Positions 21,535-53,866 of a DNA stretch of 64,000 nucleotides are shown here, piece by piece. The notes beneath the pieces are model-generated. The model searched no databases. It saw only the letters and a program-made list of their open reading frames with translations, and was not told where the DNA came from. The translations under genes were made by a program, and so were the position numbers. The stretch comes from an uncultured Chloroflexia bacterium. GTDB taxonomy: Bacteria > Chloroflexota > Limnocylindria > QHBO01. Position 1 is the first letter of the stretch; every line of letters begins with the position of its first letter. The stretch spans positions 148,064-212,063 of the forward strand of contig CAVYRE010000001.1 of NCBI GenBank assembly GCA_963770875.1, given 5' to 3'.

Positions 21535-22729
21535 CTACGCGAGGTGCGCGAAGTGCAGGTGCATGGCCCCTGCGACGCCCTTGAGCTCTACCGGCCCGAT
21601 CTCCCTGAAGGCTGCGGCGCTCCCCGCCGCGTCGACCACGGCCTGGCTGACGAGCACCTCGCCGGGGCGCGCGTACTCGGCGATCCGCGAGGCGACGTTG
21701 ACCACCTGCCCGTAGTAGTCGCCCTCCTGGAAGATCACCGGCCCTGCGTGCAGGCCCACGTGCGCGGGCGGCAGCCCGGCCCCGGCGAGCCCCGTCGACC
21801 ATCTCGAGTGCGGCGACCACGCCGGGTCCCGGGTCGGGGAAGTAGAACATCACCCCGTCGCCGAGCCACTTCACCGCGCGGCCGCCGTGCTGCACCGACG
21901 TGCGCTGCACGAGCCGTCCAAGCGTCGCCGCCAGGTCGGCCGCCGCCTCGTCGCCCCGCTCCTGCGTGAGGCGCGTGTAGCCGGTGATGTCGAGGAAGCA
22001 CATCGCCGGCGGGCGGTCGAGCCGGGAGTGCAGGCCGGCGCGCGCCAGGAGCGACTCGAAGGTGCCGATGATGTTGCCGGTCCAGGCGTGGGCCTGCTGG
22101 GCGTGATAGACCGCCATCAGGGACCGCTCCGACAGGGCGGTGATCTCGCTGGCGAAGTCGGTGGCCGAGATCTCCTGCGCATCCTTGCCGGCGGCCATCG
22201 CCGGCGCGATCACCTCGGACTGCCACCAATCGGCCTCCGTCTCGGCGATCCGGCGCAGGCTGTCGCCCTGGGCGCGCAGGAGGCGCTCGATGGCGATCGG
22301 CCGGAATCCTGCCCGGATCTGGGCCGCCACGAAGTCGGCGACTGCGACCTCTTCCTCGCGAACCAGGTCGTCGGCTGAAGGCATCGCGGCGCCGCCGACC
22401 TCGCGGATCAGGGTGAGGAGGTTGATCGGCACCCCGAGGCGTTCGGCCAGCTGATGGAACGTCACGTCGCCCAGCAGCGAGAAGCGTTCGTAGACCGACG
22501 CATCCAGGAAGTCCAGCGAGAGCGTGCCCTGCTGCATGGCCGACGCGAGTCCGTCGATCGGGATCCCGGCCGCCTCCAGGCTGCGGACCATCTCGGCCCG
22601 TCGCACGTCGCCGGCGCTGAACCGATCCCCATCGCCCGGCGTGACGATGCGCAGCTCGACCAGTCGGCCCAGCTGCTCGTCGGTCAATCCTGCGCGCGTG
22701 GCGGTCTCGGCGCGGGAGTAGTCAGGCAC
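21535..22729 (-). CDS. MerR-like HTH + class III adenylate/guanylate cyclase, frame disrupted near 21790 (paralog of 35148..36353)
   Basis: Near-colinear with 35148..36353 protein up to ...VVAALEMV then shifts (extra G in gacGGGGctc); remaining cyclase C-term in 21535..21759 ORF (MGLHAGPVIFQEGDYYGQVVNVASRIAEYARPGEV). Confidence 0.7.
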
Positions 22730-22765
22730 GCCCGTACTCTACCGCCCGGGCTACCATCAGGTCGG

Positions 22766-23566
22766 ATGGCCAAGCTGGACGCCGGCAAGCGCGGCAAGCT
22801 GCGGGACAGCGACTTCGCCCACGTTGACGCGAGTGGACGCCGGCGCCTGCCGATCAACGACGAGAGCCACGTCCGCAACGCGCTGTCGCGCTTCAACCAG
22901 GTGATCTTCGAGGACGAGGCGGCGCGCGACCGGGCGCGGACCCGCCTGCTGAACGCGGCGAAGCGCTACGCGATCGTGCCGGTCGGCTTCGTCACCGGGC
23001 AGCTGCGCTCCCGCGCCCCGCAGCTCCCCAGCGGTGCCGTCACCTTCCTGATGACCGATATCGAGGCGTCGACCGCGCTGCTCCTCCAGCTCGAGGACCG
23101 ATACGGCCCGCTCCTCGCCGACGCCCGGCGGATCCATCGCACGGCCGTGAAACGGGTCGGCGGCTGGGAGGTCGACGCCCGCGCGGACGAGTTCCTCGGC
23201 GTCTTCCACGAGGCGTCGGCCGCGGTCGCCGCGGCGATCGCGATCCAGCGCCGCCTCCGCGACCACGCCTGGCCCGACAAGGTGAGCGTCCGCGTCCGGA
23301 TGGGGATCCACGCCGGCCGCCCCACGCTCACCGATGGCGGCTACGTCGGCGTCGCGGTGCACACCGTGGCGCGTGTCTCCGGCCTCGCGCGAGGCGGCCA
23401 GATCCTCATCTCGCGCCAGGCGCTGGCCTCGATCGGGGAGGATCGGCCCAGCGAGGTGACCTTCCTGGACCTGGGGGAGCACCACCTGCGGGGGCTGGGG
23501 GCGCACGGCCTCGTCCAGGTATCGGCGCCGGACCTCCCGCGGGACTTTGCGCCGATCACTTACTGA
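22766..23566 (+). CDS. class III adenylate/guanylate cyclase with N-terminal KGK-rich domain
   Basis: MAKLDAGKRGKLRDSDFAHVDASGRRRLPINDESHVRNALSRFNQ then cyclase core VTFLMTDIEASTALL...DEFLGVFHEA...; divergent from previous cyclase with only ~36 bp between starts. Confidence 0.75.
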   Translation: MAKLDAGKRGKLRDSDFAHVDASGRRRLPINDESHVRNALSRFNQVIFEDEAARDRARTRLLNAAKRYAIVPVGFVTGQLRSRAPQLPSGAVTFLMTDIEASTALLLQLEDRYGPLLADARRIHRTAVKRVGGWEVDARADEFLGVFHEASAAVAAAIAIQRRLRDHAWPDKVSVRVRMGIHAGRPTLTDGGYVGVAVHTVARVSGLARGGQILISRQALASIGEDRPSEVTFLDLGEHHLRGLGAHGLVQVSAPDLPRDFAPITY

Positions 23567-23592
23567 TCCGTTACCAGCCCGTTACCGCTCGC

Positions 23593-24775: not shown

Positions 24776-25098
24776 GGGAAACGTACCTCCTGCAGCGCCC
24801 CGGAACACTGGCCCCCTGCCTGGTCAAAGGGGAGGCTGCGACGGACGGGTCCGCTGTTGGCAGTGAGGGCGGACACTGTCGCGGGGGCCCTTCTTGGACC
24901 ACGCCTCAACACCCGTCCGAAGGGCGTATTTTCCCCCCATCGGCCCGGCCTGTCCAACCACGCTCGGGCTGAGCATGGGCCCCGGCGCGTCGTTTGCCGC
25001 CGCTTGACGAAGAGCTACTACACTGCCCGAGCGACTCGCCGATCGGTGGCTCGCGCCCAATACCAACCGACCCACACGACCACGGGAGTCCTCCGAGC

Positions 25099-26725
25099 AT
25101 GACCGTCGCCGCGCCGCACGAACCTGCCTTCGACCGAGCCCCCATCGAGCTGCCCCACCGCGTCCGGATGGAGATCCTGGGCGCGGTGCTGCTGGGCATC
25201 CTGCTCGCCGCCCTGGACCAGACGATCGTGGGGACAGCTCTCCCCCGGATCGTCACCGACCTCAAGGGCAACGATGTCTACACCTGGGCCTTCACCGGGT
25301 ACCTGCTGACCGCCACAGCCTCTGGCCCGATCTACGGCAAGCTCTCCGACCTGTTCGGCCGACGCCCGATGTTCCTGACCGGGGTCGTCATCTTCCTGGT
25401 CGGCTCGGCGCTGTCGGGGCTCTCCCAGCAGATGTGGCAGCTGATCGCGTTCCGGGCGCTCCAGGGCCTCGGCGCAGGCGCCCTCTTCCCGATCTCGATC
25501 GCCATCATCGGCGACATCTTCAGCCCCTCGGAGCGAGGCAAGTACCTGGGCTTCTTCGGGGCCGTGTTCGGGCTCTCATCGCTCATCGGCCCGGCCATCG
25601 GCGGCATCCTGACCGATACCGTCGGCTGGCAGTGGATCTTCTACGTGAACATCCCGCTGGGCCTCGTCGTGCTCTACATCATCTGGCGCACGCTGCCGAC
25701 CGTCGTCGAGCCGGGGCTCAAGCGCAAGGTCGACTACCTCGGCGCCGCGACCCTGGTGGGCGCCCTCTTCCCGATCCTGATCGGCCTCACCAACAAGCAG
25801 TTCGGCGACTGGACCGATCCGCAGGTGGGCGGGCTGATCGCCCTGGGCCTGGCCTTCGCCGCGGTCTTCATCTGGGCCGAGTCGCGCGCGGATGAGCCGA
25901 TCCTGCCGCTCAAGCTGTTCCGCATCCGCGCCTTCACCGCGAGCGTCTTCGCCATCTTCCTGGCGGCGATGGGCTTCTTCACCGCCGTCGTCTTCCTGCC
26001 GCGCTGGTTCCAGGTCGTGGCGGGCGCCTCCGCCACCGAGTCCGGCTACCAGATCCTGCCGATGCTCGCGGGGCTGATCCTGTCGGCCACCATCTCCGGG
26101 CAGCTGGTCGCGCGGACCGGGCGCTACAAGGCGCTGATCGGGGCGTCGCTGCTGGTGCTGGCGGTCGGGCCTCTTCCTGCTCACCAACCTGCGCAGCGAG
26201 ACCGATCGGCCGCTGCTGTGGCTCTGGATGGCGGTCACCGGCCTCGGGATCGGGCCGTCGTTCGCCGTCTTCACGCTGGTGGTGCAGAACGCCGTGCCGG
26301 TCAACGAGCTGGGGGTCGGGACGAGCAGCATCACGCTCTTCCAGCAGGTGGGCGGGACCGTGGGCCTGGCGATCACCGGCTCGATCTTCGGCTCGAACCT
26401 GCTGGCCGAGATGCCCAGGCAGATCGCCGCCAAGGGGGTCCCGGCGGAGCTGGCCGACCAGTTCGCCCAGGGCGGGGGAGCGGCGCTCAACAACCTGTCC
26501 GGGGTGGGGGACCTCGGCACGGCGATCCTCGCCCAGGTGCCCGCCGCGCAGCACGACCAGGTGGCGCCGCTCATTCCGGCGATCGTGTCGGGCATCCACG
26601 AGGCCTTCTCGCTGGCCATCGCCTCGACCTTCAGCGTGGGGATCGTGACGGCGCTGCTCGCCGCGGCGATCGTGTTCACGCTGATGCCGCGCGGGAAGAT
26701 CGGGGAGGGACCAGCCAGCTCCTGA
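25099..26725 (+). CDS. MFS transporter, DHA2 (EmrB/QacA) family, frame disrupted near 26172
   Basis: 14-TM-type MFS; two track ORFs (..26170 and 26228..26725) are colinear parts of one protein; junction LLVLAVG|LFLLTNLRSE needs removal of one base from gtcGGGCctc. Confidence 0.75.
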
Positions 26726-27182: not shown

Positions 27183-27278
27183 TCCGGGCAGGTCGGGGCG
27201 GGTCGAGGCCCGCAGCGTGCCTGCGTGCACTCGCGTGCACTCAGCGTGGACGGCAAGGGGCGCCGCTAGACTGAGCCG

Positions 27279-27734
27279 ATGGTTGCCTGGGACGACTTCG
27301 CGACGGCCGCCCCGGAGCTGGCCGCCAAGGGTCGGCGCCTCTTCGAGCGGCGCGGCGACGGCGAGGCGCTCCTCGCGAGCGTGCGGGGCGACAACCCGCC
27401 GCGGATCCACCCCATCAACGTTGCGATCGTGGGAGGACGGCTGCTCGCCTTCGTGATCGTCGGGTCGGCCAAGGTGGCGGACCTGGCCGGCGACGGCCGA
27501 TACGCCCTCCACGCCCACCAGGACCCCGCCGAGCCGCACGAGTTCCAGGTCCGCGGCCACGCCCGCGAAGTGACGGATGCAGCTACGCGCGCCGCCGTCG
27601 CAGCGGCCTGGGCGTTCGAGGTGGACGACGGGTATCGGCTCTTCGAGTTCGGGATCGAGCACGCCATCTTCGGGGAGCGCGCCAGCGCCGACGACTGGCC
27701 GCCGGTCTACACGTCATGGAGGGCGAAGCCGTGA
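27279..27734 (+). CDS. pyridoxamine 5'-phosphate oxidase-family (PPOX/F420-type) FMN-binding protein
   Basis: Split-barrel PNPOx-like pattern IHPINVAIVGGRLLAFV. Confidence 0.65.
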   Translation: MVAWDDFATAAPELAAKGRRLFERRGDGEALLASVRGDNPPRIHPINVAIVGGRLLAFVIVGSAKVADLAGDGRYALHAHQDPAEPHEFQVRGHAREVTDAATRAAVAAAWAFEVDDGYRLFEFGIEHAIFGERASADDWPPVYTSWRAKP

Positions 27735-28129
27735 GCGACGAGAACAAGGCGCTCGTGCGGCGCTTCATCACCGAGATCTTCGAGCAGGGGCGCGTCGAGG
27801 CGATCGACGAGCTGTGCGCCCCCGACTTCATCGGCCATACCTGGGGCAACGCCGACCGCGCCGGCCTCAAGCAAGCCATGGCCCGCGTCGCAACGGCCTT
27901 GGCCGATGCCCATTTCGAGATCGACGACATGATCGCGGAGGAGGACCGCGTGGCGGTTCGCCTCACCGCCACTGCGCGACAGGTGGGGGAGTTCATGGGC
28001 GTGCCGCCCAGCGGGCGCAGCTACACGATCGGCGAGATCCACATCTTCCGGTTGCGAGACGGCAAGGTCAGCGAGCACTGGCACGAGTTCGACCGCACCG
28101 GACTGATCAAGCAGCTCAGCGAGAAGTAA
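27716..28129 (+). CDS. SnoaL-like/ester cyclase family protein
   Basis: LVRRFITEIFEQGRVEAIDELCAPDFIGH...HWHEFDRTGLIKQL. Confidence 0.65.
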   Translation: MEGEAVSDENKALVRRFITEIFEQGRVEAIDELCAPDFIGHTWGNADRAGLKQAMARVATALADAHFEIDDMIAEEDRVAVRLTATARQVGEFMGVPPSGRSYTIGEIHIFRLRDGKVSEHWHEFDRTGLIKQLSEK

Positions 28130-28737: not shown

Positions 28738-28825
28738 GACCCTGCCAGGGCGCCGGGCGGTCTGCGAAGGCCGCTCGGCCCACCCTCAACGTCTTCTCGC
28801 CTTGCGCGGGGTAAGGTTCGCGCCG

Positions 28826-29992
28826 ATGCGCGTCCTCTTCACCTCCTTGCCCCTGGTCGGCCACTTCAACTCGCTGCTGCCCGTGGCGCGGGCAACCGCG
28901 GCGGCGGGGCACGAGGTCGCGGTCTGCTGCGCCCGGCTCTTCGCGGATCAGCTCGCGCGCGCCGGCCTCCAGCACCTCCCCGGCGGAGCGGACGAGTGGG
29001 CCGCTCTGGACGGCCGATGCGCCACCGCAGGGCGACCCGCGGCGCAACCGGTTCATGCAGCGCCGGGTCTTCGGCGAGCGCGCGCCGCTGCGGATGATCC
29101 CCGACCTGCTCGCGCACGCCGAGGCGTGGCGCCCCGACGTCATCGTCCGGGAGAACGGGGAGTGGGCGGGCTGCCTCGTGGCGGAGAAGCTCGGCCTGCC
29201 GCACGCCTCGATCGGGTCAGGCTCGATGAGCGGCCGGGACGAGCGGCGATCGCTCTTCGCCGAGCCCATGTCGGTGCGACGCGCGGAGCTGGGCCTGCCG
29301 GACGATCCTGAGGGGCAGATGATCTTCCGCTACCTCCACCTCGCCTTCACCCCGCCCGGCTGGGAGGGCGACGACGCCCGTCCCGCCACCGCGCACTACA
29401 TCCGCTACGACAACCCCGCAGCGGCCGGGCGAGACACGTCCGTCCTGGCTCGACGAGCCGCGCGACCGTCCCGCTCGTGCTGGCCAGCCTGGGGACGCTC
29501 ATGCACGACCTGCCGGGGCTCTTCGAGGCGATCGTCGAGGCGGTCGCGGATGAGCCGATCGAGGTCGTGGCAGCCATCGGCCGGGACCAGGACCCGGCCC
29601 GCTTCGGCACCGCGCCGGCGAACGTGCGGATCGAGCAGTTCGTGCCGCAGATCCAGGTACTGGCCGAATGCGCGCTCTTCGTGACGCACGGTGGCTTCAA
29701 CTCCACCAAGGAGGCGCTGCGGCTGGGGATCCCACTGGTGGTGACGCCGATCGGCGGGGACCAGCCGTACACCGCGCAGCGGGTGGAGGCGATGGCCTGG
29801 GCCGTGCGGTGGGGCCGACGAGCGCGACCCGGTGACGATCCGCGCGCGGGTGCGCGAGGTGCTCGCCGAGCCGCGCTATCGGGCCACGCGCAGGCGTTCT
29901 CCGCGGAGATGCAGGCGCTGCCGCCGATGGCGCACGCGGTGGAGTTGTTGGAGCAGCTTGCCCGCGACCGGCAGCCAATTGTTCGTCCCTGA
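28826..29992 (+). pseudogene. UDP-glycosyltransferase (MGT/macrolide-GT-like) with about four frame disruptions
   Basis: MRVLFTSLPLVGHFNSLLPVARA..., ...PDVIVRENGEWAGCLVAEKLGLPHASIG..., ...LVLASLGTLMHD..., ...HGGFNSTKEAL...GIPLVVTPIGGDQPY..., C-term AEPRYRA...AFSAEMQALPPMAHAVELLEQL distributed over 3 frames. Confidence 0.65.
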
Positions 29993-33243: not shown

Positions 33244-34392
33244 CTAAGCAGCGGTCGCCGGCGGTACCGCCGACCTGCCCCGCGACCGCCAGGCGTGCCA
33301 CCAGGCGACCGCGAAGGCGCCGATGCCGAACAGGATCACGGCCAGCTTCAGCCAACCCCCGAGGATGGGGATGCTGGTCACGATGACCACGCCCGCTGCC
33401 CCGGCCGCGAGCAGGCCCAGGTCCTGCCATCGGTTGTCGGCCTGGACGCCGGCGGCGGTGCGCGACATCGCCCAGCGGGCGACCGTGAGGCCGACCAGCG
33501 CATCGGCCACGAAGGCGCAGGCGAGCACGAACAGGAAGGTGACGACGCTGATCGCCAGCAGGCCGCCGAGCAGGTCGATCGCCACCAGCGCCCCGACCTG
33601 GAGCAGCCCGAACAGGATGGCCAGCAGGACCATGGCGAGGGTCGCCGCGATCACGAAGGCGATGTAGCCCACGAACGCCAGCGCCCCGCCGCCGAGCGAC
33701 AGCCAGGGTCGGTCGCGGAGCGTCTGGCCCGCGGCCGCCATGCGGCGCGGCAGCAGCCACAGCAGCAGGGCGCCGAACAGGAAGACGACCACGAACTGCC
33801 GCAGCGCGTCCAGCACGGGCTCGGACGCGGCGACCGGCAATGACCGGCTGGGGGCCACGACCACGTGCTCCGTGCCGCCCACCGCGCCGCCGGCCGAATA
33901 GGTGCCGGCGCTGCCCTCGACGCTGCCCCGAACCGACCCGGACATCGTCACCTGGCCGCCGGAGACGATCAGGTCGCCACCGATCTCGCCACTCCCGGGA
34001 ATCGTCACCTGGCCGCCGGCAGCGGCCACGTCATCGCGCACCGTCCCGCCCATGGTGATCTGCCCGCCGGCCAGCCGCGCGTCGCCGCGGACGACCCCGC
34101 CGATCGAAACGGTACCGCCCGCCGCGAGGAGGTCGCCGGTGACAGTGCCCGTCACGTCAACCTGGCCGCCCAGGACGGTCAGGTCGCCATCGACGAAGCC
34201 GGCCACCGTGACGCGTCCGCCCAGCAGGTACAGGTCCCCACGCCATTTCTCGTCCGCGGGCACGGTGATGTTGTCGCCGGTGCGCAGCTTCCCGCCCAGC
34301 AGCTGCCCCTTGCCCAGGACCAGGCTGGCCGCCAGCACCAGGAGCAGCACTGCGGCCGCCAACGCCGCACCTCGGCGCAGCCATCGGCTCAT
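33244..34392 (-). CDS. bactofilin-like repeat protein with C-terminal membrane domain
   Basis: Start MSRWLRR by arithmetic; repetitive G-rich beta-solenoid-like segments (GDLTVLGGQVDVTGTVTGDLLAAGGTVSIGG...) followed by multiple TM helices. Confidence 0.6.
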   Translation of the reverse strand: MSRWLRRGAALAAAVLLLVLAASLVLGKGQLLGGKLRTGDNITVPADEKWRGDLYLLGGRVTVAGFVDGDLTVLGGQVDVTGTVTGDLLAAGGTVSIGGVVRGDARLAGGQITMGGTVRDDVAAAGGQVTIPGSGEIGGDLIVSGGQVTMSGSVRGSVEGSAGTYSAGGAVGGTEHVVVAPSRSLPVAASEPVLDALRQFVVVFLFGALLLWLLPRRMAAAGQTLRDRPWLSLGGGALAFVGYIAFVIAATLAMVLLAILFGLLQVGALVAIDLLGGLLAISVVTFLFVLACAFVADALVGLTVARWAMSRTAAGVQADNRWQDLGLLAAGAAGVVIVTSIPILGGWLKLAVILFGIGAFAVAWWHAWRSRGRSAVPPATAA

Positions 34393-34446
34393 GGAATCCC
34401 TCCTTCGGATCTGATTGGACCGATGGTCGGCTCGTCCGGGCGACGA

Positions 34447-36742: not shown

Positions 36743-36957
36743 CGATCCCACTCGCTGCGCGCCGGCACGAGGAGGTCGGGAATGGTCCCGAAGGTCTCGT
36801 CGAGCGCCGTCTCGACATCGGGCCGGTCATCGGCCAGATAGGTGTCCACGGCTTCGCGGATCATGCGCGCCATGGGCGCACCGGTTCGACGGCCGCGGAG
36901 ATCGAGCCGCTTGCGCTGATCATCGGTCAGATAGATCTGGGTTCTCACGCTCGCCAT
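36739..36957 (-). CDS. vapB: ribbon-helix-helix antitoxin VapB
   Basis: MASVRTQIYLTDDQRKRLDLRGRRTGAPMARMIREAVDTYL; 4-nt overlap with vapC. Confidence 0.7.
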   Translation of the reverse strand: MASVRTQIYLTDDQRKRLDLRGRRTGAPMARMIREAVDTYLADDRPDVETALDETFGTIPDLLVPARSEWDR

Positions 36958-36982
36958 ATACAGCGGAGTATACAGCGGCCTC

Positions 36983-39780: not shown

Positions 39781-40043
39781 CTCGCAAGACTGACCTCCTC
39801 CTTGAGTACGACGAATCCGTCGATGCGGCCTATCTCCGCGTGAATGACCGCCCCTGGCACCACCAGGTCCGGCTCGATGACGGCCGCGGGATCAACTACG
39901 CAGCCGACGGGTCCGTGATCGGCATCGAGATCCTCTCGCCGCGCCGCATGGGCGTCCTGCTCGACGGGTTGCCGTACCCTGACGACGTTGCCCGTGTGAT
40001 GCGCTCCTGCGGCTTCCGCATCCTCGAGGGTGCCCGGGGCTAG
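39768..40043 (+). CDS. DUF2283-like small protein
   Basis: LLEYDESVDAAYLRV...GSVIGIEIL motif typical of DUF2283. Confidence 0.6.
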   Translation: MAEVARKTDLLLEYDESVDAAYLRVNDRPWHHQVRLDDGRGINYAADGSVIGIEILSPRRMGVLLDGLPYPDDVARVMRSCGFRILEGARG

Positions 40044-40057
40044 TCAACCGGCGGGCA

Positions 40058-40219
40058 TTTACGCCCAGCGTCAGTAACAGCCAAGAAGGCATCGGCGTCG
40101 TCGCGTTTTGGGCCGCAACTTGGCCGCCAGTTACGCCCAGCGTAAGCGGGCGACAAGAAGGGCACCTTCGCGGCGCGAACTTGGCCGTTAGTGACGCTGG
40201 GCGCAAATCTGCGCTCGAA
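40058..40219. repeat. REP/BIME-like composite palindromic element, locus 7 (three units)
   Basis: CATTTACGCCCAGCGTCAGTAACAGCCAAGAAG / CTTGGCCGCCAGTTACGCCCAGCGTAAGCGGGCGACAAGAAG / CTTGGCCGTTAGTGACGCTGGGCGCAAATCTGCGCTCG. Confidence 0.75.
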
Positions 40220-40273
40220 GTTCAGCGGCGCTGCGACACCTGAGCTGTCACCGGCAGCGCCCAGGATCAGGGC

Positions 40274-40573
40274 ATGCCCACTCCCACTACTCCCCCCAGG
40301 TCCCGCAGCTCATCGAGCTCGAAGGCGGCAGCCGACGCGGTCGGCAAGGCCATCGGGTCCATCCATCCCATCGTCAGCATGTGGCGCGACGGGCTGACCG
40401 TCATCGCGCTCGAGTCGAGCCTCGCCAATCGGGCTCCCGACTACCTCACCCTCGACCAGGCACAGGCCGATGCCGGCGTGCAGGTCCAGGAGGCCGCCAC
40501 GCAGACGGTGCCCTCGGTCGACGCCATCACCGGACCGATGCCGGTGCTCATCCTGGGCGGCCTCGAGAAGTAG
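40274..40573 (+). pseudogene. 5' fragment of a gene truncated at the left border of the low-GC islet
   Basis: Ends ...TLDQAQADAGVQVQEAATQTVPSVDAITGPMPVLILGGLEK* exactly where GC drops; reads like an N-terminal domain lacking its continuation. Confidence 0.4.
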
Positions 40574-40732
40574 ACTGGGTGGCGTTTCCAACCCGGCCCA
40601 CACCCCTACTCTTGAGCCTGCCCCGACTTCGAGGGAATGGCGTCTCCACCAAGCAGTGATCGCAGGCGTATGTGAACCGATGCCTCAAGCCAGCTGCGGA
40701 GGTCTCGTAGCTGGCCCAGGAAGCCGAATAGT

Positions 40733-42685
40733 TCAAGAATCCCCACGAGAATGAGCCCAACTGCCCCGACAACGCCCAACCAGCTCCGTCCCAGCGGAAG
40801 TTCGTAGGACGACCGTGATACTCGCGACGAGGATCAGCGGAGTAATTGCCCAATAGACTGCGGCGCCAATCCAACCAGCCCAACGGCGGGCGCGGCCGTC
40901 AATCTCGAGGTCATGGCGCCTAAGCGCTTCAATCGCGTTCGTAGCGGCAGCCTCGGCACTTGCGGTCTTCAGGTCGGCCTCTGCGCGAAGCGCATTGATG
41001 CGCACTTCATAGCTTGCGCCTAGCTCGTCGAGCTCAAAGTCCGCGCGTGCCTTGTAATCGGCGATGACTCGGTCGACGACCTCATCAAGCGTGCCCGCGT
41101 CCACGTCTTCCGGGTCGTCGTCGGGTTCTGCGGTGCGAAGGATCCTGTCCGAGACACTGGAGACGATAATTGCTGTCACCTGGTCGGGTGACAATCGATC
41201 TGCCTTGCGTAATTCATCAAGGTGCGCGAGGAATCGCCTCCACATCCTCGCCGAGGGTCGCATGGCCGCGGAGCAGAGAGCCACCAGCTGGCGGATTTGG
41301 TACTCGGAGCTCGCCACTGGCCTCTTCAGCCATGCAAGGTTGGCGAGTGCTCGAATGTGGACAATTGGGGGGACGCCCCCCTCCTTCTCGTCCTCCTCCC
41401 ACCAAACCGTTGTGTTCGTAATGACAAGGGGCGACGCGGTGGCAAAGACTACCCTCGCATCTTCAATTCGATAGGAACGGTGGCCCGCACGGAGGGTGAG
41501 CACTCCTGCAACAGAATCGACATCGTGTTCGACCCGAGGCTCCGCGATGTCATGTGTTCGTGGATCAGCTAATCGGCTTGCGAGCTTGGCTTCATCTTGT
41601 GTGTATCGAGCGACGTGTTGTGGCGCACGCCTGATGGTTAACCCCGCGGATTGAATCTCGCCTTCAAGCAACGCAGACATTTCCTGAACGTCGCTTGGCG
41701 CGTACCGTTGCGTCAGGAAATGTCGAGCCATTGACGAAGGACGAAGACTTTGTCGGCCGACCGAGGTGGCCAACTTGTCCTGGTACATCCGCAGAATCCG
41801 TTGGATCTCCTGCACGGTCTTATCGAACACCATGCAACGGATGCCGCTCGCCGCAAGGAGATCAATCGTGTCGCGCATCATCAGCCGCGGCGCAGTTCCT
41901 TCATACCCAAGCGCCTGACGCACTAGAACGGAGTCAAATACGACCGTCAGATCGACAAATCGGCGTGAGACCTCGTTGATGTCTGGCAGGAATGCGGCGT
42001 GGTAGAGGACGAGACCTTCGAGTAATCCCTGCAAGACTCCCTTGAGGCCGCGGTCCTGCTCAACCGTCTCCTCGAGGAACTGCGCAACCAGTAACGACTC
42101 GGATTTGCTGAGACCGGGCACCTCATGCTCCTCGGTCACGCCAAGAATGAGCGAAACCTGATGCTCCTCGAGGAAACGGAAAATAAGGTCGAGGGCACTC
42201 TTGGCTGTGTGCTCTAGCGTCGCGTGCTTGCGAACGTGCTCCGCAAGGGCGGCTCCTAGGCGAAGCTGCCCTGCCTCGACTGCCGCCTTGGTTTCCGAGA
42301 CATCCGGGGCCGAGAGGTCCTTGCCCGGACTGACCCTGAACCTCCCCGCATCTCTCTCTAGAATCCCGCGCCGAGCGGCGCGTTTCAGAAGGGTGCTGAC
42401 AGTCTCTTGTGGCATCGCAATGCCGTGACGGGCGGCGACCCCCTCCTGGATATCCGCGACCGTGAAATATCGACTTGGTTCGACCGACACCGCATCGAGG
42501 ACCAACGGCGAGAACATGCCAAGCTGGTCCTCCCCCTCGTCCAATCGCGCCTTAAGGAATGCCACAGTTACGAGTCCGCCGGCGCCCACGCTTGGTTTCC
42601 TCTCGGTCATCGGCCGAGCCTCACCGGTGAGGTCATTCCGTTGCTCCCGGTGAGCTTCGCTCGTTATCCGGTCATCCTCATTCAT
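40733..42685 (-). CDS. large (650 aa) uncharacterized protein with C-terminal hydrophobic helix; partner of Mrr-like nuclease
   Basis: Start MNEDDR overlaps upstream stop (GATGAATGA); lower GC/codon bias; wH-like stretch FTVADIQEGVAARHGIAMPQETVSTLLKRAARRGIL; no P-loop; C-term WAGWIGAAVYWAITPLILVASITVVL. Confidence 0.7.
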   Translation of the reverse strand: MNEDDRITSEAHREQRNDLTGEARPMTERKPSVGAGGLVTVAFLKARLDEGEDQLGMFSPLVLDAVSVEPSRYFTVADIQEGVAARHGIAMPQETVSTLLKRAARRGILERDAGRFRVSPGKDLSAPDVSETKAAVEAGQLRLGAALAEHVRKHATLEHTAKSALDLIFRFLEEHQVSLILGVTEEHEVPGLSKSESLLVAQFLEETVEQDRGLKGVLQGLLEGLVLYHAAFLPDINEVSRRFVDLTVVFDSVLVRQALGYEGTAPRLMMRDTIDLLAASGIRCMVFDKTVQEIQRILRMYQDKLATSVGRQSLRPSSMARHFLTQRYAPSDVQEMSALLEGEIQSAGLTIRRAPQHVARYTQDEAKLASRLADPRTHDIAEPRVEHDVDSVAGVLTLRAGHRSYRIEDARVVFATASPLVITNTTVWWEEDEKEGGVPPIVHIRALANLAWLKRPVASSEYQIRQLVALCSAAMRPSARMWRRFLAHLDELRKADRLSPDQVTAIIVSSVSDRILRTAEPDDDPEDVDAGTLDEVVDRVIADYKARADFELDELGASYEVRINALRAEADLKTASAEAAATNAIEALRRHDLEIDGRARRWAGWIGAAVYWAITPLILVASITVVLRTSAGTELVGRCRGSWAHSRGDS

Positions 42686-43547
42686 CGACAAGGATGTCCG
42701 CTGGTTCACGAGCACTCACGCGCCGCTCGTACGTTGCATCAATCGCATTGAGAAGGTCGAGGACACTGACCCCAGCCTCGATGGCCAGGCGAGCCATGAT
42801 TTCTCCAACTTGTCGCCCGGCTACCAGAAGGATGGGGTACCCATCGTCCTGAAGCTCTCGTTGGGCTTGAAGGGAGAAGTGACCAGTCGTAACGAAAACG
42901 CCCACCCAGCCTCGATCCAGCTTCGCCGCGAGCCTCGATAATTCGGCGACACCGCTCGCCCCCGCCTGGCATTTCGCCTGCCCGGCTACGACGATTCGCA
43001 GCGGAACTGAGCTACTCCCCAGGTCAAGTCTTCCTACAAAATCGATGCCGCGGTCGCCTGAACCTCGGCTTACCCAGCCCAACCGATACAGACCGGCATG
43101 CTCGAATGAGGCCTGCGCGACCCGCTCTGCGACCGCCTCAAACCGGCTCTTTGGCCGGTTGGCATAGAAGGCGATTGTCGTTCGGAGCGCTCCCTCGGCC
43201 GTCGACCCGGCAAGCGGCCGCTGATCGCTCTCAGACAAAATCCTGTAGCTGAGGAGGCGTTGGCGAACCTGGGCCAGCGACGCTGTGCCGCGGTCAATCC
43301 ACTGCCTCCAGGATTTGGGCGCTAGCACTAGGGTCTCGGTCAGCGTTCTTGTGGAGTCTCGGCGAGCTGCGACCCACGTCCAATCGAGCAGATTGTTCTC
43401 AGAGGCGAGGCTGAGAAGTGCGCAGTCGTATCGGTAGTTGACAAACGGTCGGCCGTGCCGGTCCACTTGCACCACGCGCTCGACGCGGTCCACTAAGCCA
43501 ACTCCTCGGAAGCGGCGGTAGCCCTTAGCGCGATTCTCTTGAATCAC
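42678..43547 (-). CDS. Mrr-type PD-(D/E)xK restriction endonuclease-domain protein with unassigned N-terminal region
   Basis: C-terminal half ...GDRGIDFVGRL...RIVVAGQAKCQ...GVFVTTGHFSLQAQRE matches Mrr_cat D/(D/E)xK layout; GTG start; upstream frames open. Confidence 0.7.
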   Translation of the reverse strand: MIQENRAKGYRRFRGVGLVDRVERVVQVDRHGRPFVNYRYDCALLSLASENNLLDWTWVAARRDSTRTLTETLVLAPKSWRQWIDRGTASLAQVRQRLLSYRILSESDQRPLAGSTAEGALRTTIAFYANRPKSRFEAVAERVAQASFEHAGLYRLGWVSRGSGDRGIDFVGRLDLGSSSVPLRIVVAGQAKCQAGASGVAELSRLAAKLDRGWVGVFVTTGHFSLQAQRELQDDGYPILLVAGRQVGEIMARLAIEAGVSVLDLLNAIDATYERRVSAREPADILVDE

Positions 43548-43999
43548 GCTCTCGAAGAAGATAAGTGGGCACGCCCGTCGCCTGTCTCGGTGTCTCCTGA
43601 GGCCGAGAGGTCAAACTGATCCAGGATCGCGCGGTTTCCTGGCGTTCGATCGGGGTTCTCACTTAGGCCGGGCTTGTTGTCACCGTAGTAGCGGACGAAA
43701 CCGTTTCGCGGGTCGATCTCATCGTGCCACGGGGTCCAGTCCTATCCAGCCTTGTGCGGATTGATACCAATCAAGATTGCCGGGCGGCGCGGCCCATCCG
43801 CCGCCGAGACCACGGTAATCGCGTCGATGCCCTTCTCGAGTTGCGCCCTCCCGCATTCTTGAGCCCCGGCCACTGTGGCCACCGCGTCGCCGCGAAGAAG
43901 CTCTCCAGCTCACCCTCAGATCGCTCAGCGATCTGCTCAGGGGCGGGCTTCGGGTACCGGTAGGTGTCATGCAGTCGCAGCACCGTGGCACTCTTCGAC
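43548..43999 (-). pseudogene. degraded coding remnants at right edge of islet
   Basis: Fragmentary frames (…WTPWHDEIDPRNGFVRYYGDNKPGLSENPDRTPGNRAILDQFDL…) interrupted by stops; may be the lost 5' part of the Mrr-like gene. Confidence 0.3.
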
Positions 44000-44915
44000 C
44001 TAACGAAGGAATCGCTCCGACGCATGCCACTCGAGAAATGCGGGATTAGGTCGAGCCTGCGGATCAACCGGCAGGCCTAGCGGTCGACCGGCGAGCGCGT
44101 AGTAGTCGCGACCGTTCTCATAGTCCTCACGGATGCGGCGACTTACTACGACCTGCATGTTTGAGCTTACGCCAAGTATCCAGCGTCGAACAGAGCATGG
44201 ACGTCCTTCCGCAAGAAGCAGGCCATTGTCAAGGCGATGCTCACCGTGCTGGGCGTAGGGCATGATGTGAGCGGCATCGAGGGCGGGTAGGGTCCGCTCG
44301 GCCGTCATGGCGCATCGGCGCTCGTAGGCATCTGTGACGGCGATGCGGAATCCGCCTTGGCCTAGCCGTGGGGCGATCAGTACCGGCGTGCCGTATCGAT
44401 CCTCGGCGATCCTGATGGCGCGAGGCTAGCAGCCGCACCCGACACCTCACGCCACACCCTGGCGCCGATCTGCATCGGCATCGCTGTACGTCTTGCCCTG
44501 GACGATGTTCGGCGCCCAGTCCTCTGGCGGCCGGACCCATCGCTCACGCGGCAGGAAGAATGGCCGGTTGAGGATCATGCAGCCGATCTCGTCGTGGGTG
44601 GCAATGATCGGCTCCTGCCTGTAGCGCTGGACGCGCGTGAGCATCTCCTCTGCGTCGCCGCCCCGTTCTTCTCCTCGAATGCTTCCCACGCGAGGTAGAT
44701 CGGGACCTTCGGTGAAGGGCCGAGCGACAAGCCACCGCCGACGAGGAACCCTCCGTCGCGAGGCGTGGAGCTTGAATAGGAAGGGGGCACCGGCAGGTAA
44801 GGGTCACCGGCGCGCGCCGAGCGCTTGGCTGCCAGAAGTTGACCTCGTCAAGATCCGGGCGCGCCGCTAGAAATCGATACCAGTCGCAGTCGGTGATTCC
44901 GATCCAGAACCGCAT
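44000..44915 (-). pseudogene. HNH endonuclease family gene with >=2 frame disruptions
   Basis: N-part MRFWIGITDCDWYRFLAARPDLDEVNFWQPS, middle YRQEPIIATHDEIGCMILNRPFFLPRERWVRPPEDWAPNIVQGKTYS, C-part LPALDAAHIMPYAQHGEHRLDNGLLL (HNH motif) in three different frames. Confidence 0.55.
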
Positions 44916-45026: not shown

Positions 45027-46014
45027 ATGAAAGCCGCCGTCCGATACCGATATGGGACGCCCGACGTCGTTCGGGTCGAGGAGCTGCGACACGCCGGTCC
45101 CGGCCGAGGGCGAGGTGCTCGTTCGGACTCCGGGCCGCATCGGTCAACCGGGCTGACCTCGACGACATCCAGCCGCGCCCCCAGTTCGTGCGCCTCTTCA
45201 TGGGGCTGCGGGCACCGCGCCAGCCCCAGATCGGCGTCGACGTCGCCGGGGTGGTCGAGGCGGTGGGCGCCGGCGTGACCCGCTTCCGCCCCGGTGACGA
45301 GGTCTTCGCCGACCTGTTCGCCGCCGGCCACGTGGGCGCCTTCGCCGAGTACGTGTCCGCGCCGGAGAAGGCCTTCCAGCCGATGCCGCCGGGCATGAGC
45401 TTCACCGACGCCGCCACCCTGCCGCACTCGGCGATCCTGGCGCTCCAGGGGCTGCGGACCCGCAAGGGCCGGACCGTGCAGGCGGGGGAGAAGGTGCTGG
45501 TGGTGGGCGCATCGGGCAATGTCGGGCCGTTCGCGGTCCAGATCGCGAAGGCGCTGGGCGCGGAGGTGACCGGCGTCTGCAGCCGCGCCAAGGTCGACTT
45601 CGTGCGCTCGCTCGGGGCCGATGAGGTCCTCAGCTACACCGACGTCAACTTCACGCGCATGGGCCGGCAGTGGGACTGGATCCTCGACACCGATTCGCAC
45701 CACTCGATCTTCGCCGTGCGCCGCGCGCTGCGGCCCGGCGGGCAGGTACGTGACGCTGGGCGGGGAGGCCGGGCCGCTGTTCGGGGCGCTGCTGGGCGGG
45801 CCGCTCATCGGCCTGTTCAGCGACAAGCACCTGGGCCTGATGATCTGGTGGAAGCCGATGCACCCGCCCGACGTGGATCGGCTCAAGGAGCTGATCGCGG
45901 CGGGGAAGGTGCGGCCGGTGATCGACCGGACGCTACCCGCTGAGCGAGATCGTGGATGCGCTGAAGTGGGTCAACGACGGCCACGCCCGCGGCAAGGTGG
46001 TCATCACGTTCTAG
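45027..46014 (+). pseudogene. zinc-type alcohol dehydrogenase/quinone oxidoreductase (MDR family) with three frame disruptions
   Basis: MKAAVRYRYGTPDVVRVEEL... / ...ASVNRADLDD...GAFAEYVSAPE...VLVVGASGNVGPFAVQIAKALGAEV... / ...GGRYVTLGGEAGP... / ...PLSEIVDALKWVNDGHARGKVVITF* across three frames. Confidence 0.6.
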
Positions 46015-49454: not shown

Positions 49455-50445
49455 TCAAGCATCGGCCTCGAGCATCGCGGCGATCTCGCGGGCGTTGGTG
49501 GTGCCGTAGTTGGCGTAGCAGTTGTTCATCAGCAGGTGCACGTTCTGGGCCGATGCCGCCGCCTGCCGGATGCGGGGGACCCATTCGCCCAGCTCATCGG
49601 CGTCGTAGAGGTAGCGGAAGCGCTCGACCACCGGGATCCCCTTGGCCTCCCAGGTCTCGGTGCGCCGGCCATGGAAGCGGACCACCGCGAGGTTTGGCGA
49701 GGTGACGGCGACGATCGGCGGCAGGGCGGTCTTCGTCTGCGGCTCGTCGACCATCACGAACGGGATCTCGTACTTCTCCAGGAAGCTGATCGTCCGCTCG
49801 GCGTTCTTCTCGTTGAACCAGGTGTTGTTGCGGAATTCGACCGCCAGGCCGATGTCGCCCGAGCCGCTCCTTCGCCTCCACGATCGCGTCGCGGCTCTCG
49901 TTGGAGGGGAAGAACCAGCGCGGGTACTGGAGGAAGACGGCGCCCAGCTTGCCCGCCGAGTGGAGCGGCGCGATCCCGTCCTTGAACGCCTCCCAGATGG
50001 CGGTGCGAAGCTCCTCCGGCAGGTCCTTGCCGTAGATGCGGGTCTTGCCCTGCAGCTCGATGGGCAGCTCCTCGCGGATCTCCTTCGGCAGCCGCTTGAC
50101 CTCCGACGGCTGGGCGGTCATCAGGGCGTGGGCCTTGATGTCGAAGGTGAAGTCGGGCGGGGTGCGCTCGAGCCACAGCTCGCCCAGCCGCCGGGTCGGC
50201 AGGGCGTAGTAGGTGGCGTCGACCTCGACGATCGGGAACTGGTCGGCGTAGTAGCGCAGCCTCTCTTCCGCCGTCGTGGCGTCCGGCGGGTAGAAGACGC
50301 CCGGCTCGACCATGGTCGGATCGGTCCAGCTCGCGGTGCCGATGCGGACCGTCGCCGTGTCCACGCTGAGCGGGTGCCGCGCGGCCTCGACCTGCGCCTC
50401 GCCGCGCTCGGCGGAGGCGATCGGTCCGGGGTCGTGGTCCGTCAT
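49455..50445 (-). CDS. DUF72 (UPF0759) family protein, two frame disruptions
   Basis: MTDHDPGPIASAERGE... N-part, middle ...DIGLAVEFRNNTWFNEKNAERTISFLEKYEIPFV, C-part MVDEPQTKTALPPIVAVTSPNLAVVRFHGRR in three frames; one lesion is an extra G in ctcGGGcgac. Confidence 0.6.
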
Positions 50446-53400
50446 CACGTTTCGACGGCGCCGCGGACCTCGTCGACCTCGAACAGGAAGAGCTGCGCGT
50501 CGCACTCGATGAGGATCTCGCGGGCGCGGTCCAGGACCTCCGCGGGGTCCTCGCCGATCCGGGTCATCGCGCGGCCGAGGTCGACCATGGCCAGCGCGGC
50601 GCAGACGCGCATCTCGAGGCGCTCGAACTCAGCCACCGCCTCCCGAAGGATCGCCACGGCTCGTTGGGGATCGGGCACGAGCAGGCCCGCGATGTTGCGG
50701 GCGTGGGCTGCGCTCTGAACCGAATCGGTCGACGCGTCCACGTCGCGGAAGGTGGCGGCAAGGGCGGTGTCGCCTGCCAGCAGGAGCGCCCGGACGCACT
50801 CAGTGAAGGCCTCGGGGTTCGTCTCGACGCTGTGCGCGCGGACCAGCAGGGCGGATTCGACGAACTTCTTCGCCGCCAGGGCCCGGTCATGCCGGCCCTG
50901 CGCGATGTACGCGTCGAGCGCCGCGATGAAGTAGGCGGCCTGCGGCTCCGGGTTGGCCAGCAGGAGCCGCTCGGACTCGTTGCGAATTTCCAGCCCCTCG
51001 TCGATGCGTCCGCGCATCAGCACGGCCGCGGCCAGTGCTCCCAAACGCTGACCCGTCAGTGGCTCATCCGTGGCCCGCCTGGCAAGGTCAACGGCCTGCC
51101 GCTGATAGCGCTCCGCTTCCTCCAGGCGGCCGAGAAGGAGCATCGTGTCGCCCAGGCTTCCCGCGATCCACCCGCTCATCTGGATGATCCCGGCGCGCAA
51201 TGCGAGCTCGAGTCCCTCCATCAGGACCTCGGCGGCAGCCGTCGGACCAGGTGAGGCGCCCCGAACGGTGGAGAGGTTGTTGTAGGCTCGGAAGAGGTTG
51301 CTGGTGTCGCCGGCCTCTTTGGCCAGGATGAATGCCTCCTCCATGAGCCGACGGAATTCGGCGAACCTCCCGAACGACAGCTGGCAGACCGCCAGCGTCT
51401 GGGTGGCCTCCGCGCGAACGAGCTTCGCGTCCACCCGCGCCGCCATCTCGATGGCCCTGCGCAGGAGCGGATCGGCTTCAGGCAATCGCCCTCGTCGCCA
51501 GAAGAACCAGCCGAGCCGATGGAGCGCGTCGGCGAGATCGGCACTCTCTCCGAGCGGCTCGAGCGTCTCGATCGCGATGCGGCCAGCCTCCTCAGCTTCG
51601 TCGTGCCTCGACTGCTGCATGAGCGCGATGACGAGTCGGGCATTGACCCATCCGACGCCGCCGAGGTCGCCTGCCGCCGTGAAGATCTCGATGGCTCGAC
51701 GGGCCACGCGCTCGTTCTCGGCGCTGCTGTCCGGCCCGCCCGTTGTCGCCACGTGCTCTCGCGCGAGCGGCGCTCGCTCGGCCGCTGGGATGTCGAGGCG
51801 GTCGGCCAGCCGTTCTGCCTCCCGGAACCAACGGGTGCTTTCGGCAACCAGACTCAGCCCGCGGGTACGGCGAGCAGCCGCCCATGTGTCCCCGAACGCC
51901 TTCCGCTCGACGTCGGGACGCCGCTCCCCCAGCTCCTCGAGGTAGCGGAGCGCCTCGACCTCGTGGGTGGCGATCAGCTCGGCGATCTCCTCGGCACGGT
52001 CGCCGGCCCGCTGCTCCGCCCAGCGGGCAACGCCCAGGTGCATGTCGGCGCGGAGCGATTTCGGCAGCGAGTCGTACGCACCGTCCCGGATCAGGGCGTG
52101 ACGGAATGCGAACTCGTGCTCGTCGCGGAAGGAGGAGGGTTCGTGTTGGGCGATGAGCTCCTTGACCCGGAGCCGGCCGAGCGCGTCGCGCACCTCGCCG
52201 ATCGCCTTGCCGGTCAGCTCGACGACCGCGCCGACCCAGAAGACGCGGCCCACCACGGCCGCGTCCTGGAGGACCTGCTTCTCGTCGTCGGGCAGGCCGT
52301 CGAGGCGCGCCGCGATGAGGCCCTGCACGGAGCGGGGGAGCTCCAAGCCGGCGAACGGTTTGGCGACCTCCCAGCTGGACGCATCCGTGGCCCGCAGCAC
52401 CCCGTCGTCGATCAGCTTGCGGACGATCTCCTCGACGTAGAGGGGGTTGCCCTCGCTCCGCTCGACGATCGTCCGCTTGAGCTCCGCCTGAATCGGCCCC
52501 GGCAGCAGGTCGTCGAGCATCGCCGCGCCCTCGGTGGCCGAGAGGGGATCGAGATAGATCGAGGTCGCGTTCCGCTTTCCGCCGCCCCAGGTGGGGCGCT
52601 TCTCGAACAGCTCGGCGCGGGCAGTCGCAATGACCATGATCGGGCCCTGCGCCCAGTCCGAGACATGCTCGATGAAGTCGAGCAGGCCGTCATCGGCCCA
52701 TTGGATGTCCTCCAGCACCAGGACCAGCGGGTAGCGCGCTGCCAGCCGCTCCAGGAATCGTCGCCACGCTTCGAACAGCTCCTCGCGGCTCAGGTCGCGC
52801 GACTCGCCGGCGCCGACCAGCGCGCGCAGCTGCGGCGCGATGCTGTCGTCACCGAACAGCTCCCGGGCGGCGGCCTCCGCCTTCCCCGCCGCGACTTCGG
52901 CGGTGTCGTCGTCGAAGATCTCGCATTGCGCCTTGATGGCGTCGGCGAGCGCGGAGTAGGAGGTGTTGCCATAGGCCAGGCATCGGCCCCGCCGCCAGTA
53001 CGCGATCTCCGGCAGGGGCTCGACGTAGCGCTCCAGCTCAGCGATCAGGCGTGACTTGCCCACGCCCGCCGGCCCGATGACGGTCACCAGGGCGGGCTGT
53101 CGATCGGTCTGGACCCGATGGAAGGTCTGGGTGAGGACCGCCAGCTCCTCGTCGCGCCCGACCATGGTCGCCTCCAGGCCGAGGCGCGGGCGCTCGCCGC
53201 GGGTCCGGGCCTTGATGCGCAGGGTGCGCCACGCCGGCACCGGCTCGGCCTTGCCCTTGAGGTCGAGCGGGGAGAGCTCCTGATACTCGATGACGTCCTT
53301 CGTGCTGGCGTGGACGCTTGGGCCCACCACCACGTGGCCGGGTTCTGCCGCCGTCTGGAGCCGGGCGGCCGTGTTCACCGCATCGCCGGTCAGCATCCGG

Positions 53401-53866
53401 TCCCGCGGCCCGGACGCGCGTTCGACGTCGACCAGCACCTCGCCGGACTCGATCCCGATCCGCATCCCGAGCGTCGGCTTACCCTCGGCGGCGAAGCCGC
53501 GGTTCAGCTCGGAGAGGATCGCCTGCATCTCGAGGGCTGCGCGTACGGCGCGCTCGGCGTCGTCCTCGTGCGCACGAGGGACGCCGAAGACGGCCAGGAT
53601 GCGTCGCCCATGAACTTCTCGAGCAGTCCCTCGTGGCGCCCGATCTCCTCTGCCATCCGGTCGAAGGTGCGGCCGATGACCGACTGCACGACCTCCGGAT
53701 CCTCGCGCTCAGCGAGGGCCGTGGAGCCAACGAGATCGGCGAACAGCGCCGTGGCGAACTTGCGCTCCTTGCGCGTGGTGTGCGCCGCGGTGAGCGTCGT
53801 GCCGCAGGCGTTGCAGAAGCGGGCGCCTTCCGGATTCTCCTGGCCGCACGAGGGGCACGTGAGCAT
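50445..53866 (-). CDS. zinc-ribbon + class III nucleotidyl cyclase + STAND/AAA ATPase + TPR regulator (about 1140 aa), one frame disruption near 53587
   Basis: MLTCPSCGQENPEGARFCNACG; cyclase FADLVGSTAL...KFMGDA|ILAVFGVPRAHEDDAERAVRAALEMQAI (one base missing); P-loop VIGPAGVGKSRL; long TPR-like C-terminus. Confidence 0.75.

Follow-up and report, generated by a model that had tools for sequence, protein, structure and literature searches.

Four class III cyclase genes in a soil Chloroflexota contig: two Rv1264-type enzymes with tandem MerR-like repeats, a divergent DUF6582 cyclase and a STAND-TPR giant

The 64-kb stretch of DNA analyzed here from an uncultured Chloroflexia bacterium, called the window in the following and with all coordinates counted from its position 1, contains four class III nucleotidyl cyclase genes, which we name Cyc1, Cyc2, Cyc3 and the giant cyclase (Table 1). 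An earlier note on this DNA had claimed four such genes, and open reading frame (ORF) listing, Pfam, phmmer and six-frame searching found every one of them in place. The six-frame hmmsearch, performed with two family-specific cyclase hidden Markov models (HMMs), gave exactly these four and no fifth cyclase gene in the window. The genes do not form one system but are scattered among ordinary chromosomal genes, with 11.6 and 14 kb of unrelated genes in the intervals between them. The GC content is about 70% throughout the window, except for a dip at 40–44 kb, and the closest relatives of the window are Chloroflexota/Limnocylindria-type soil metagenome-assembled genomes (MAGs) with long contigs. 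We read the four genes as separately regulated cyclases of three known architectural kinds, with Cyc1 and Cyc2 being of the Rv1264/Rv2212 type, Cyc3 being LipJ/Ma1120-like and the giant being a STAND protein, and with the frame breaks found in two of them being assembly indels; for this joint claim we estimate a probability of roughly 0.7.

Loss of the two metal-binding Asp residues would have spoken against cyclase identity, and residue alignments revealed that both are kept in all four domains, as D248 and D292 in Cyc1 and Cyc2, as D98 and D141 in Cyc3, and within the motifs FADLVGST and FMGDA in the giant, invariant in each of the family alignments. Membership in PF00211 was also seen by sequence, with Pfam matches for Cyc1, for the C-terminal part of Cyc2 and for the repaired giant. 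With regards to the substrate-specifying residues, which the earlier note had suggested should be compared, the adenine pair and the transition-state Asn/Arg are canonical in Cyc1 and Cyc2 (K288, D338, N345 and R349), while in the giant these positions are occupied by K, Met, N and R, with Met at the second specificity position, and Cyc3 has D137, G192, H199 and R203, thereby carrying D/G/H in place of K/D/N. The residues D248, K288, D292, D338, N345 and R349 were invariant among 90 homologues of the Cyc1 family. As judged from these alignments, the catalytic set of Cyc1 and Cyc2 is of the full ATP (adenine-specific) type, with two metal Asp, a Lys/Asp adenine pair and Asn/Arg.

The two paralogues Cyc1 and Cyc2 are colinear as had been noted before, although the extent of this is larger than the approximately 300 residues first given, with 64% identity across 396 aligned residues. 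In Cyc1, Pfam identified Guanylate_cyc at residues 243–389 (42 bits) and Ad_Cy_reg at residues 92–200 (33.8 bits, cutoff 28.6), the latter being above its gathering score and N-terminal to the catalytic domain, as is the case in Rv1264-type cyclases. Residues 86–236 scanned alone gave 32.5 bits with Ad_Cy_reg, and for the homologue P0037 the score was 39 bits, with residues 43–205 matching profile positions 19–178. Using phmmer, Cyc1 matched the Rv1264 holoenzyme (1y10) with an E-value of 2e-18, aligning query residues 90–400 to residues 68–378 of the chain and thus including part of the regulatory domain, and an Rv1264N-like fold of the regulatory domain was found for the Cyc1 type. AlphaFold2 models of Cyc1 had predicted local distance difference test (pLDDT) values of 89.9 for the full length and 90.2 for residues 1–236. 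As assigned with DSSP, the modelled N-terminal module shows one and the same pattern twice, at residues 4–66 and 86–139, consisting of strand, helix, helix, short hairpin, helix and helix, followed by a 35-residue helix and then a 49-residue helix that leads into the catalytic domain. The two repeats could also be aligned with each other by hhalign (residues 4–67 versus 89–153; P 6e-6, probability 85%).

That the paralogues start with a MerR-like helix-turn-helix (HTH), as the earlier note had proposed, was borne out by several analyses. On whole Cyc1 the MerR_1 profile matched residues 4–63 at 21.5 bits, just below its cutoff of 21.6, but when the N-terminus was scanned alone the score was 24.2 bits; a profile of residues 1–88 gave more than 10 MerR-family structures in register upon searching the PDB, with E-values from 0.0016; and the predicted fold agrees. 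For mapping onto Rv1264, the sequence used for that protein was validated by a 298-bit match to Ad_Cy_reg, residues 10–194 to profile positions 2–186. With Ad_Cy_reg mapped on Rv1264 and on P0037, residue 43 of the Cyc1 family corresponds to residue 27 of Rv1264. The part of repeat 1 made up of strand, helices 1 and 2 and wing therefore faces nothing but a short acidic tail in Rv1264, which has no counterpart to the first 38 residues of Cyc1. The presumed MerR HTH is hence the complete front end of the known Rv1264-type autoinhibitory domain, which itself appears to be a tandem MerR-like duplication. Because Cyc1 and Cyc2 have the whole of repeat 1, of which Rv1264 has only a part, these results suggest a duplicated MerR-type domain as the ancestor of the Rv1264 sensor.

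As a structure, Rv1264 serves as the textbook case of autoinhibition in a bacterial class III cyclase. By analogy, the 235-residue N-terminal module of Cyc1 and Cyc2 would dimerise into a disc that keeps two catalytic domains apart, and these domains would be freed via the His-rich linker helix by low pH, a fatty acid or another such signal. This helix keeps a conserved His-rich stretch, YHAxQAHAWT, at the position of the alphaN10 switch helix of Rv1264, and a similar switch role is what we infer for it by that analogy. For Rv1264 itself, it is established that a regulatory dimer keeps the catalytic domains inactive, that acidic pH lifts this inhibition and that the structure contains bound oleic acid, and for the related Rv2212 that fatty acids are activating (Tews 2005, Findeisen 2007 and Abdel Motaal 2006, as cited in PMC12505454).

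Some observations weigh against the reading given above. The repaired Cyc2 gave no significant match to Ad_Cy_reg, yet it shares 64% identity with Cyc1 along its whole length, and the match between Rv1264N and the regulatory domain alone was weak in sequence (E 0.012). The catalytic set of Cyc1 and Cyc2 has one single departure, with H324, a His invariant in the family, replacing the phosphate-binding Arg within an RxG(I/L)H motif; as a matter of speculation, H324 and the YHAxQAHAWT stretch could be plausible pH-sensitive elements, but any control of Cyc1 and Cyc2 by pH or lipid is proposed purely by analogy. Conservation of repeat 1 is strong (A10, R12, G14, P31, G40 and R43/R44), which should reflect a specific function that the analogy leaves unexplained, since Rv1264 works without that segment. 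The origin of the indels as errors, finally, is deduced by comparing sequences and not from reads.

In the most probable of the alternatives, which follows the lines of the earlier note, the N-terminal MerR HTH would be a DNA binder, or a sensor of metal or redox state like MerR, CueR and SoxR, thereby making Cyc1 and Cyc2 one-component couplers of promoter or DNA occupancy or metal state to cyclic nucleotide monophosphate (cNMP) production. We consider this unlikely. Repeat 1 is indeed a complete winged HTH scoring above the MerR_1 cutoff when scanned alone, its best structural neighbours include DNA-bound TnrA, GlnR, TipAN, SoxR and MerR, there is an NCBIfam match to the MerR-type regulator FtsR (E 1e-4), and it is highly conserved although Rv1264 does without its first half. 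Compared with MerR proteins, however, the wing is short by 4–5 residues, a single Arg is all that is left of the RYY-type contact motif in helix 2, and residues 1–38 are net acidic in 59/59 homologues (mean −3.8), which is a weak argument as the aligned segment of TipAN is acidic too by our own count; these three sequence features would lean weakly against DNA binding by repeat 1. CbpM and DafA, which have a MerR fold but are not DNA binders, match structurally just as well, the homologous module of Rv1264 is a protein-internal regulator, and no conserved palindrome was found in the Cyc2/Cyc3 intergenic region upon comparing the window with the related loci L081, L082 and L005. Where MerR regulators have a C-terminal effector site, the cyclase domain stands in the place of the effector domain.

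Metal-state sensing, as proposed in the earlier note, found no support. No invariant or near-invariant Cys that could form a metal or Fe-S site of the MerR/CueR/SoxR type was present within residues 1–235 of the 90 homologues, with the sole conserved Cys of the family being C245 in the catalytic domain, and metal or redox sensing of that kind is therefore unsupported. Most likely, repeat 1 serves the regulatory disc as a structural or interaction element and does not read DNA. There is only a slim chance that it still binds specific DNA, with Cyc1 and Cyc2 being chromosome-tethered adenylyl cyclases or dual transcription factor/enzyme proteins. If that were true, cyclic AMP (cAMP) would be made locally, or the proteins would switch between DNA binding and catalysis, and a MerR-type regulator of this kind would be the ancestor from which the pH sensor of Rv1264 degenerated.

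Table 1. Coordinates in the window of the cyclase genes, their parts and other genes with split reading frames
Feature	Coordinates	Strand	Description
Cyc1	35148..36353	-	Intact ORF of 401 residues; predicted Rv1264-type class III adenylyl cyclase with tandem MerR-like regulatory module and catalytic domain
Cyc1 repeat 1, residues 1–70	36144..36353	-	Full MerR-like winged HTH (strand; helices 1 and 2; short wing; helices 3 and 4)
Cyc1 repeat 2, residues 86–180	35814..36098	-	Second MerR-like winged HTH, then long helix; core of Pfam Ad_Cy_reg and Rv1264N
Cyc1 long linker helix, residues 183–231	35661..35807	-	From secondary structure of the models and conservation
Cyc1 catalytic class III cyclase domain, residues 241–398	35160..35633	-	
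Cyc2	21535..22729	-	Paralogue of Cyc1, 397 residues once repaired; reading frame interrupted by an extra G within GGGG at 21790-21793
Cyc2/Cyc3 intergenic region	22730..22765	.	36 bp between divergent start codons, with conserved -10-like boxes
Cyc3	22766..23566	+	266 residues
Cyc3 DUF6582, residues 1–80	22766..23005	+	
Cyc3 cyclase domain, residues 88–255	23027..23530	+	Divergent class III cyclase domain
Giant cyclase	50445..53866	-	1140 residues once repaired; 1-base deletion between 53601 and 53600 (between GDA and ILAVFG)
Giant, Zn ribbon	53789..53866	-	
Giant, cyclase	~53238..53761	-	
Giant, AAA_16/STAND NTPase	52653..53165	-	
Giant, TPR	~50448..51731	-	
Split DUF72	49455..50466		Profile 1–99, then 113–216, in different frames
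Split CorA	54713..55844		Profile 3–101, then 106–241, in different frames
Split MFS transporter	25069..26725		Profile 2–281, then 286–346, in different frames
Split EryCIII-like glycosyltransferase	28757..29992, also delimited as 28992..29992		N-terminal and C-terminal domains in separate frames
Zn-ADH (alcohol dehydrogenase)	45092..45959		Probable further split
LuxR-type response regulator	18800..19476		Probable further split

The giant cyclase had been described as a combination of zinc ribbon, cyclase, P-loop STAND ATPase and TPR-like repeats, and Pfam recovered all of these parts (Zn_Ribbon_1, Guanylate_cyc, AAA_16 at 88.6 bits and TPR_12 at 65 bits/TPR_MalT), although a 1-base frame break within the gene had been missed. 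Once repaired, the cyclase domain gave 78.5 bits across profile positions 9–175. A Walker A motif (GPAGVGKS) and a Walker B motif (LVLVLED) could be read from the sequence, and the protein thereby has the STAND-NTPase together with the TPR repeats. Among the matches listed, more than 100 homologues of about 1140 residues, deriving from Limnocylindria and Actinomycetota metagenomes, keep this architecture over their whole length, and orthologues of exactly 1140 residues with the same Pfam set include P0246 (87% identity). The motif RDRMLTGDAVNTAARLQ was almost unvaried over 115 aligned sequences, with M158 and T160 found in 115/115. The giant has the build of a Zn-ribbon-cyclase-STAND(AAA_16)-TPR signalling ATPase, in which the cyclase output is presumably gated by nucleotide-dependent oligomerisation of the STAND part.

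Both Cyc2 and the giant have broken reading frames. In Cyc2, where a one-base frame change had already been seen, it consists of the extra G listed in Table 1, and taking one G out of that run restores ...EMVDGLAGAGLPPAHVGLHAGP... in colinearity with Cyc1; an intact Cyc2 orthologue of 400 residues (74% identity) is present in L081. This break is one among many in the window. A frame analysis based on GC at third codon positions (GC3) flagged many spots where another frame on the same strand continues coding, and splits of this kind affect at least four genes that are not cyclases, giving about one break per 8–10 kb, a pattern which suggests indel errors along the contig as a whole. One further candidate, 27270..28129, was rejected as a frameshifted gene, being two separate genes, PNPOx and SnoaL. 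Because at least four other genes of the window are split alike, we read the breaks in Cyc2 and the giant, on sequence comparison, as most likely uncorrected long-read assembly indel errors and not as pseudogenisation; that the source is an 863-kb contig, with long-contig soil MAGs as nearest relatives, was also counted toward a long-read origin of the indels. The length of the giant orthologues, moreover, is exactly the repaired length.

A view of Cyc2 and the giant as genuine pseudogenes, formed by decay of redundant cyclase paralogues, would have in its favor that the deposited assembly shows both reading frames interrupted, with the gene caller having recorded just a 1027-residue fragment of the giant, and that the Cyc2 orthologue of the closest relative, L082, is fragmented too. 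We find this improbable, as the splitting of at least four unrelated genes within 64 kb is the rate expected of uncorrected long-read indels, as Cyc2 and the giant apart from a single indel keep full-length conservation and every catalytic residue, and as the several breaks in the Cyc2 orthologue of L082 lie at other positions, with its MFS gene, intact in the window, being hit as well. Frame breaks in this assembly should thus not be read as pseudogenes.

Cyc3 is transcribed divergently from Cyc2 with 36 bp between the start codons (22730-22765), in agreement with what had been stated earlier. Pfam found DUF6582 in its N-terminal part at 29.8 bits (cutoff 27.3), whereas the cyclase domain fell below Pfam reporting but gave phmmer E-values of 2e-16 to Ma1120 (4wp3) and 4e-11 to Rv1900c/LipJ, and PF00211 is carried by many of the Cyc3 homologues. 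D98, D141, R178 and R203 were kept in 65 homologues (60–88% identical), in which D137, G192 and H199, replacing the canonical K, D and N, were also invariant or nearly so. The Asp/Gly specificity pair appears unusual as judged from these alignments, making the Cyc3-type proteins a conserved candidate for unusual nucleotide specificity. For DUF6582, a profile search found no solved relative in the PDB, and comparison with PHROGs gave just one family, which is of unknown function.

The divergent layout of Cyc2 and Cyc3 recurs with a gap of 36–46 bp in L081 (about 4963-5000), L082 and L005. In these loci and in the window there are -10-like boxes in the gap, with TACCAT 7–8 nt, and in the window 8 nt, before the Cyc3 ATG and, on the other strand, TAGAGT 6 nt before the Cyc2 GTG, and this positioning suggests that the boxes may serve as back-to-back promoters of leaderless or near-leaderless transcripts. 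A sarcosine-oxidase-like cluster (DAO, GCV_T fusion, DAO) together with Lactamase_B, at 6617..13270 in the window, is syntenic with the Cyc3-homologue loci L081, L083 and L088. In L083 and L088 Lactamase_B directly abuts Cyc3, in L081 the two are separated by one MerR-like cyclase, and in the window there are also about 8 kb of extra genes between the two (esterase, ATP-grasp, two PspC-domain proteins, response regulator, OsmC and MFS).

A C1/C2-like heterodimer, to which Cyc3 would give the metal-binding Asp pair D98 and D141 and the phosphate-binding Arg R178 and Cyc2 would give Lys, Asp, Asn and Arg, could account for the complementary residue losses (H324 in Cyc2, D/G/H in Cyc3) and the recurring divergent arrangement, but is highly improbable, because Cyc2 and Cyc3 are adjacent in only 4/9 distinct Cyc3 contexts and not in the five others (L083, L084, L085-87, L088-89 and L090-91), a Cyc3 homologue was present no more than about 6 kb away in just 1/80 loci retrieved by a Cyc1 query, and H324 is typical of the whole Cyc1 family, including members without a Cyc3 neighbour. 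An obligate partnership of Cyc2 and Cyc3 is on that ground unlikely.

The genes between the cyclases include MFS transporters, OsmC, an ACT-domain protein, SnoaL-like proteins, a glycosyltransferase, a diacylglycerol kinase, a glyoxalase, DinB-like proteins, a GMC oxidoreductase, DUF72 and two toxin-antitoxin pairs. A Pycsar or other anti-phage cyclase system was considered and rejected, as the PADLOC matches to PycC were only marginal (18–21 bits) and the neighbours are metabolic, transporter and toxin-antitoxin genes; PADLOC found no defence-system signature in the window. There was no Rfam match across the whole window, and no cNMP receptor or phosphodiesterase was seen among those window ORFs that were scanned, being a part of all ORFs. 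An RHH antitoxin and a PIN toxin lie just upstream of Cyc1 (36392..37110, minus strand), and a Phd/YefM antitoxin and a PIN toxin lie just upstream of the giant (53950..54695, plus strand). The region 40000..44000, having a GC content of about 62%, no Rfam match and a 534-residue ORF (40964..42565, minus strand) with low GC3 and no Pfam match, may be foreign or mobile DNA. The ORF at 33262..34404 (minus strand) gave no Pfam match at E ≤ 0.001 but has repeated GGxVxhxGxVxGD-like units followed by a hydrophobic C-terminal region, and this repeat pattern suggests a bactofilin-like beta-helix.

The earlier note had regarded a DNA-binding domain fused directly to a cyclase as unusual wiring. The family is instead very common: the profile of the regulatory module matched 1556 clusters at 50% identity with E ≤ 0.001, and 232 with E ≤ 1e-30, complete Cyc1-type members being about 385–410 residues long. 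A patterned genome scan gave 173 relatives, mostly from soil Chloroflexota/Limnocylindria and Actinomycetota MAGs, and pairs of Cyc1-type paralogues 10–13 kb apart were found in at least three other MAGs. The combination PF13411+PF16701+PF00211 is already present in databases, some members carry the automatic label ‘class 3 adenylate cyclase/DNA-binding transcriptional MerR regulator’, and a MerR regulator is mentioned in one JGI name. Of the earlier interpretation as a whole, the four class III cyclases and the MerR-like N-terminus remain, the latter in both sequence and predicted fold, while the unusual wiring and the metal-state sensing do not. Many Cyc1-family members (P0057, P0063, P0064 and others) have a precomputed Pfam match to PF28507, which may be a recently curated model for the Cyc1-type N-terminal region.

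A literature search found no published link of Rv1264 to MerR or winged-helix domains, although the primary Rv1264 structure papers could hold an earlier mention, and nothing relevant on cyclases in Limnocylindria. Cyc1 and Cyc2 represent an uncharacterised variant of the known Rv1264-type cyclases, with the new part being the inferred origin by MerR duplication and the complete first repeat. A large uncharacterised soil subfamily, comprising hundreds of 50%-identity clusters, keeps this repeat complete and thereby offers an evolutionary origin for the Rv1264 regulatory domain. Members of all three cyclase families abound in metagenomes of soil Chloroflexota and Actinomycetota, and the presence of several cyclases in one soil bacterium is otherwise ordinary biology.

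Among known systems, Cyc1 and Cyc2 come closest to Rv1264 and Rv2212 of Mycobacterium tuberculosis (PDB 1y10, 1y11, 2ev1-4; PF16701 + PF00211), the pH- and fatty-acid-regulated class IIIc adenylyl cyclases. Like Rv1264, the Cyc1-type proteins have about 400 residues with an N-terminal helical regulatory domain and a C-terminal catalytic domain, colinear over 310 residues, and the catalytic set D, K, D, D, N, R. They differ in being just 14–23% identical, in having, opposite a 22-residue acidic tail of Rv1264, 38 N-terminal residues that complete the winged HTH, in the replacement of the phosphate-binding Arg by an invariant His, and in occurring in soil Chloroflexota and Actinomycetota MAGs, often with at least two paralogues. 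Repeat 1 has its fold and helix order in common with the MerR superfamily (MerR, SoxR, TipAL, TnrA/GlnR; CbpM, DafA), and repeat 2 does so more distantly; further shared features are a Pfam MerR_1 match at threshold and a long helix after repeat 2 that resembles the MerR dimerisation helix. Unlike MerR proteins, Cyc1 has two repeats in one chain, a shortened wing and few of the DNA-contact residues left, lacks an effector or metal Cys site, and is fused to an enzyme instead of an effector-binding domain.

The catalytic domain of Cyc3 is closest to Rv1900c (LipJ) and to Ma1120 of Mycobacterium avium, which are soluble mycobacterial class III cyclases with non-canonical residues. As in Rv1900c, there is a His at the position of the transition-state Asn, and the first specificity residue is not Lys (Asn in Rv1900c); the Asp/Gly pair, and the DUF6582 N-terminal domain in place of a lipase domain, set Cyc3 apart. 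The giant, with its order of cyclase, P-loop STAND NTPase and TPR, resembles part of the TOMM kinase/cyclase fusion (TIGR03903), the AfsR/MalT-like STAND proteins and the Rv0386 type, with Rv0386, Rv1358 and Rv2488c of M. tuberculosis being signalling ATPases of the cyclase-AAA_16-TPR type. TIGR03903 aligns to residues 27–814 of the giant, which has Walker A and B, with the match starting at profile position 277, but identity with the TOMM fusion was rejected since the score of 219 bits is far from the cutoff of 705.75 and the kinase part is absent. Compared with the TOMM fusions and the AfsR/MalT-like relatives, the giant has neither a kinase domain nor a LuxR HTH, and carries instead an N-terminal Zn ribbon and Met at the second specificity position.

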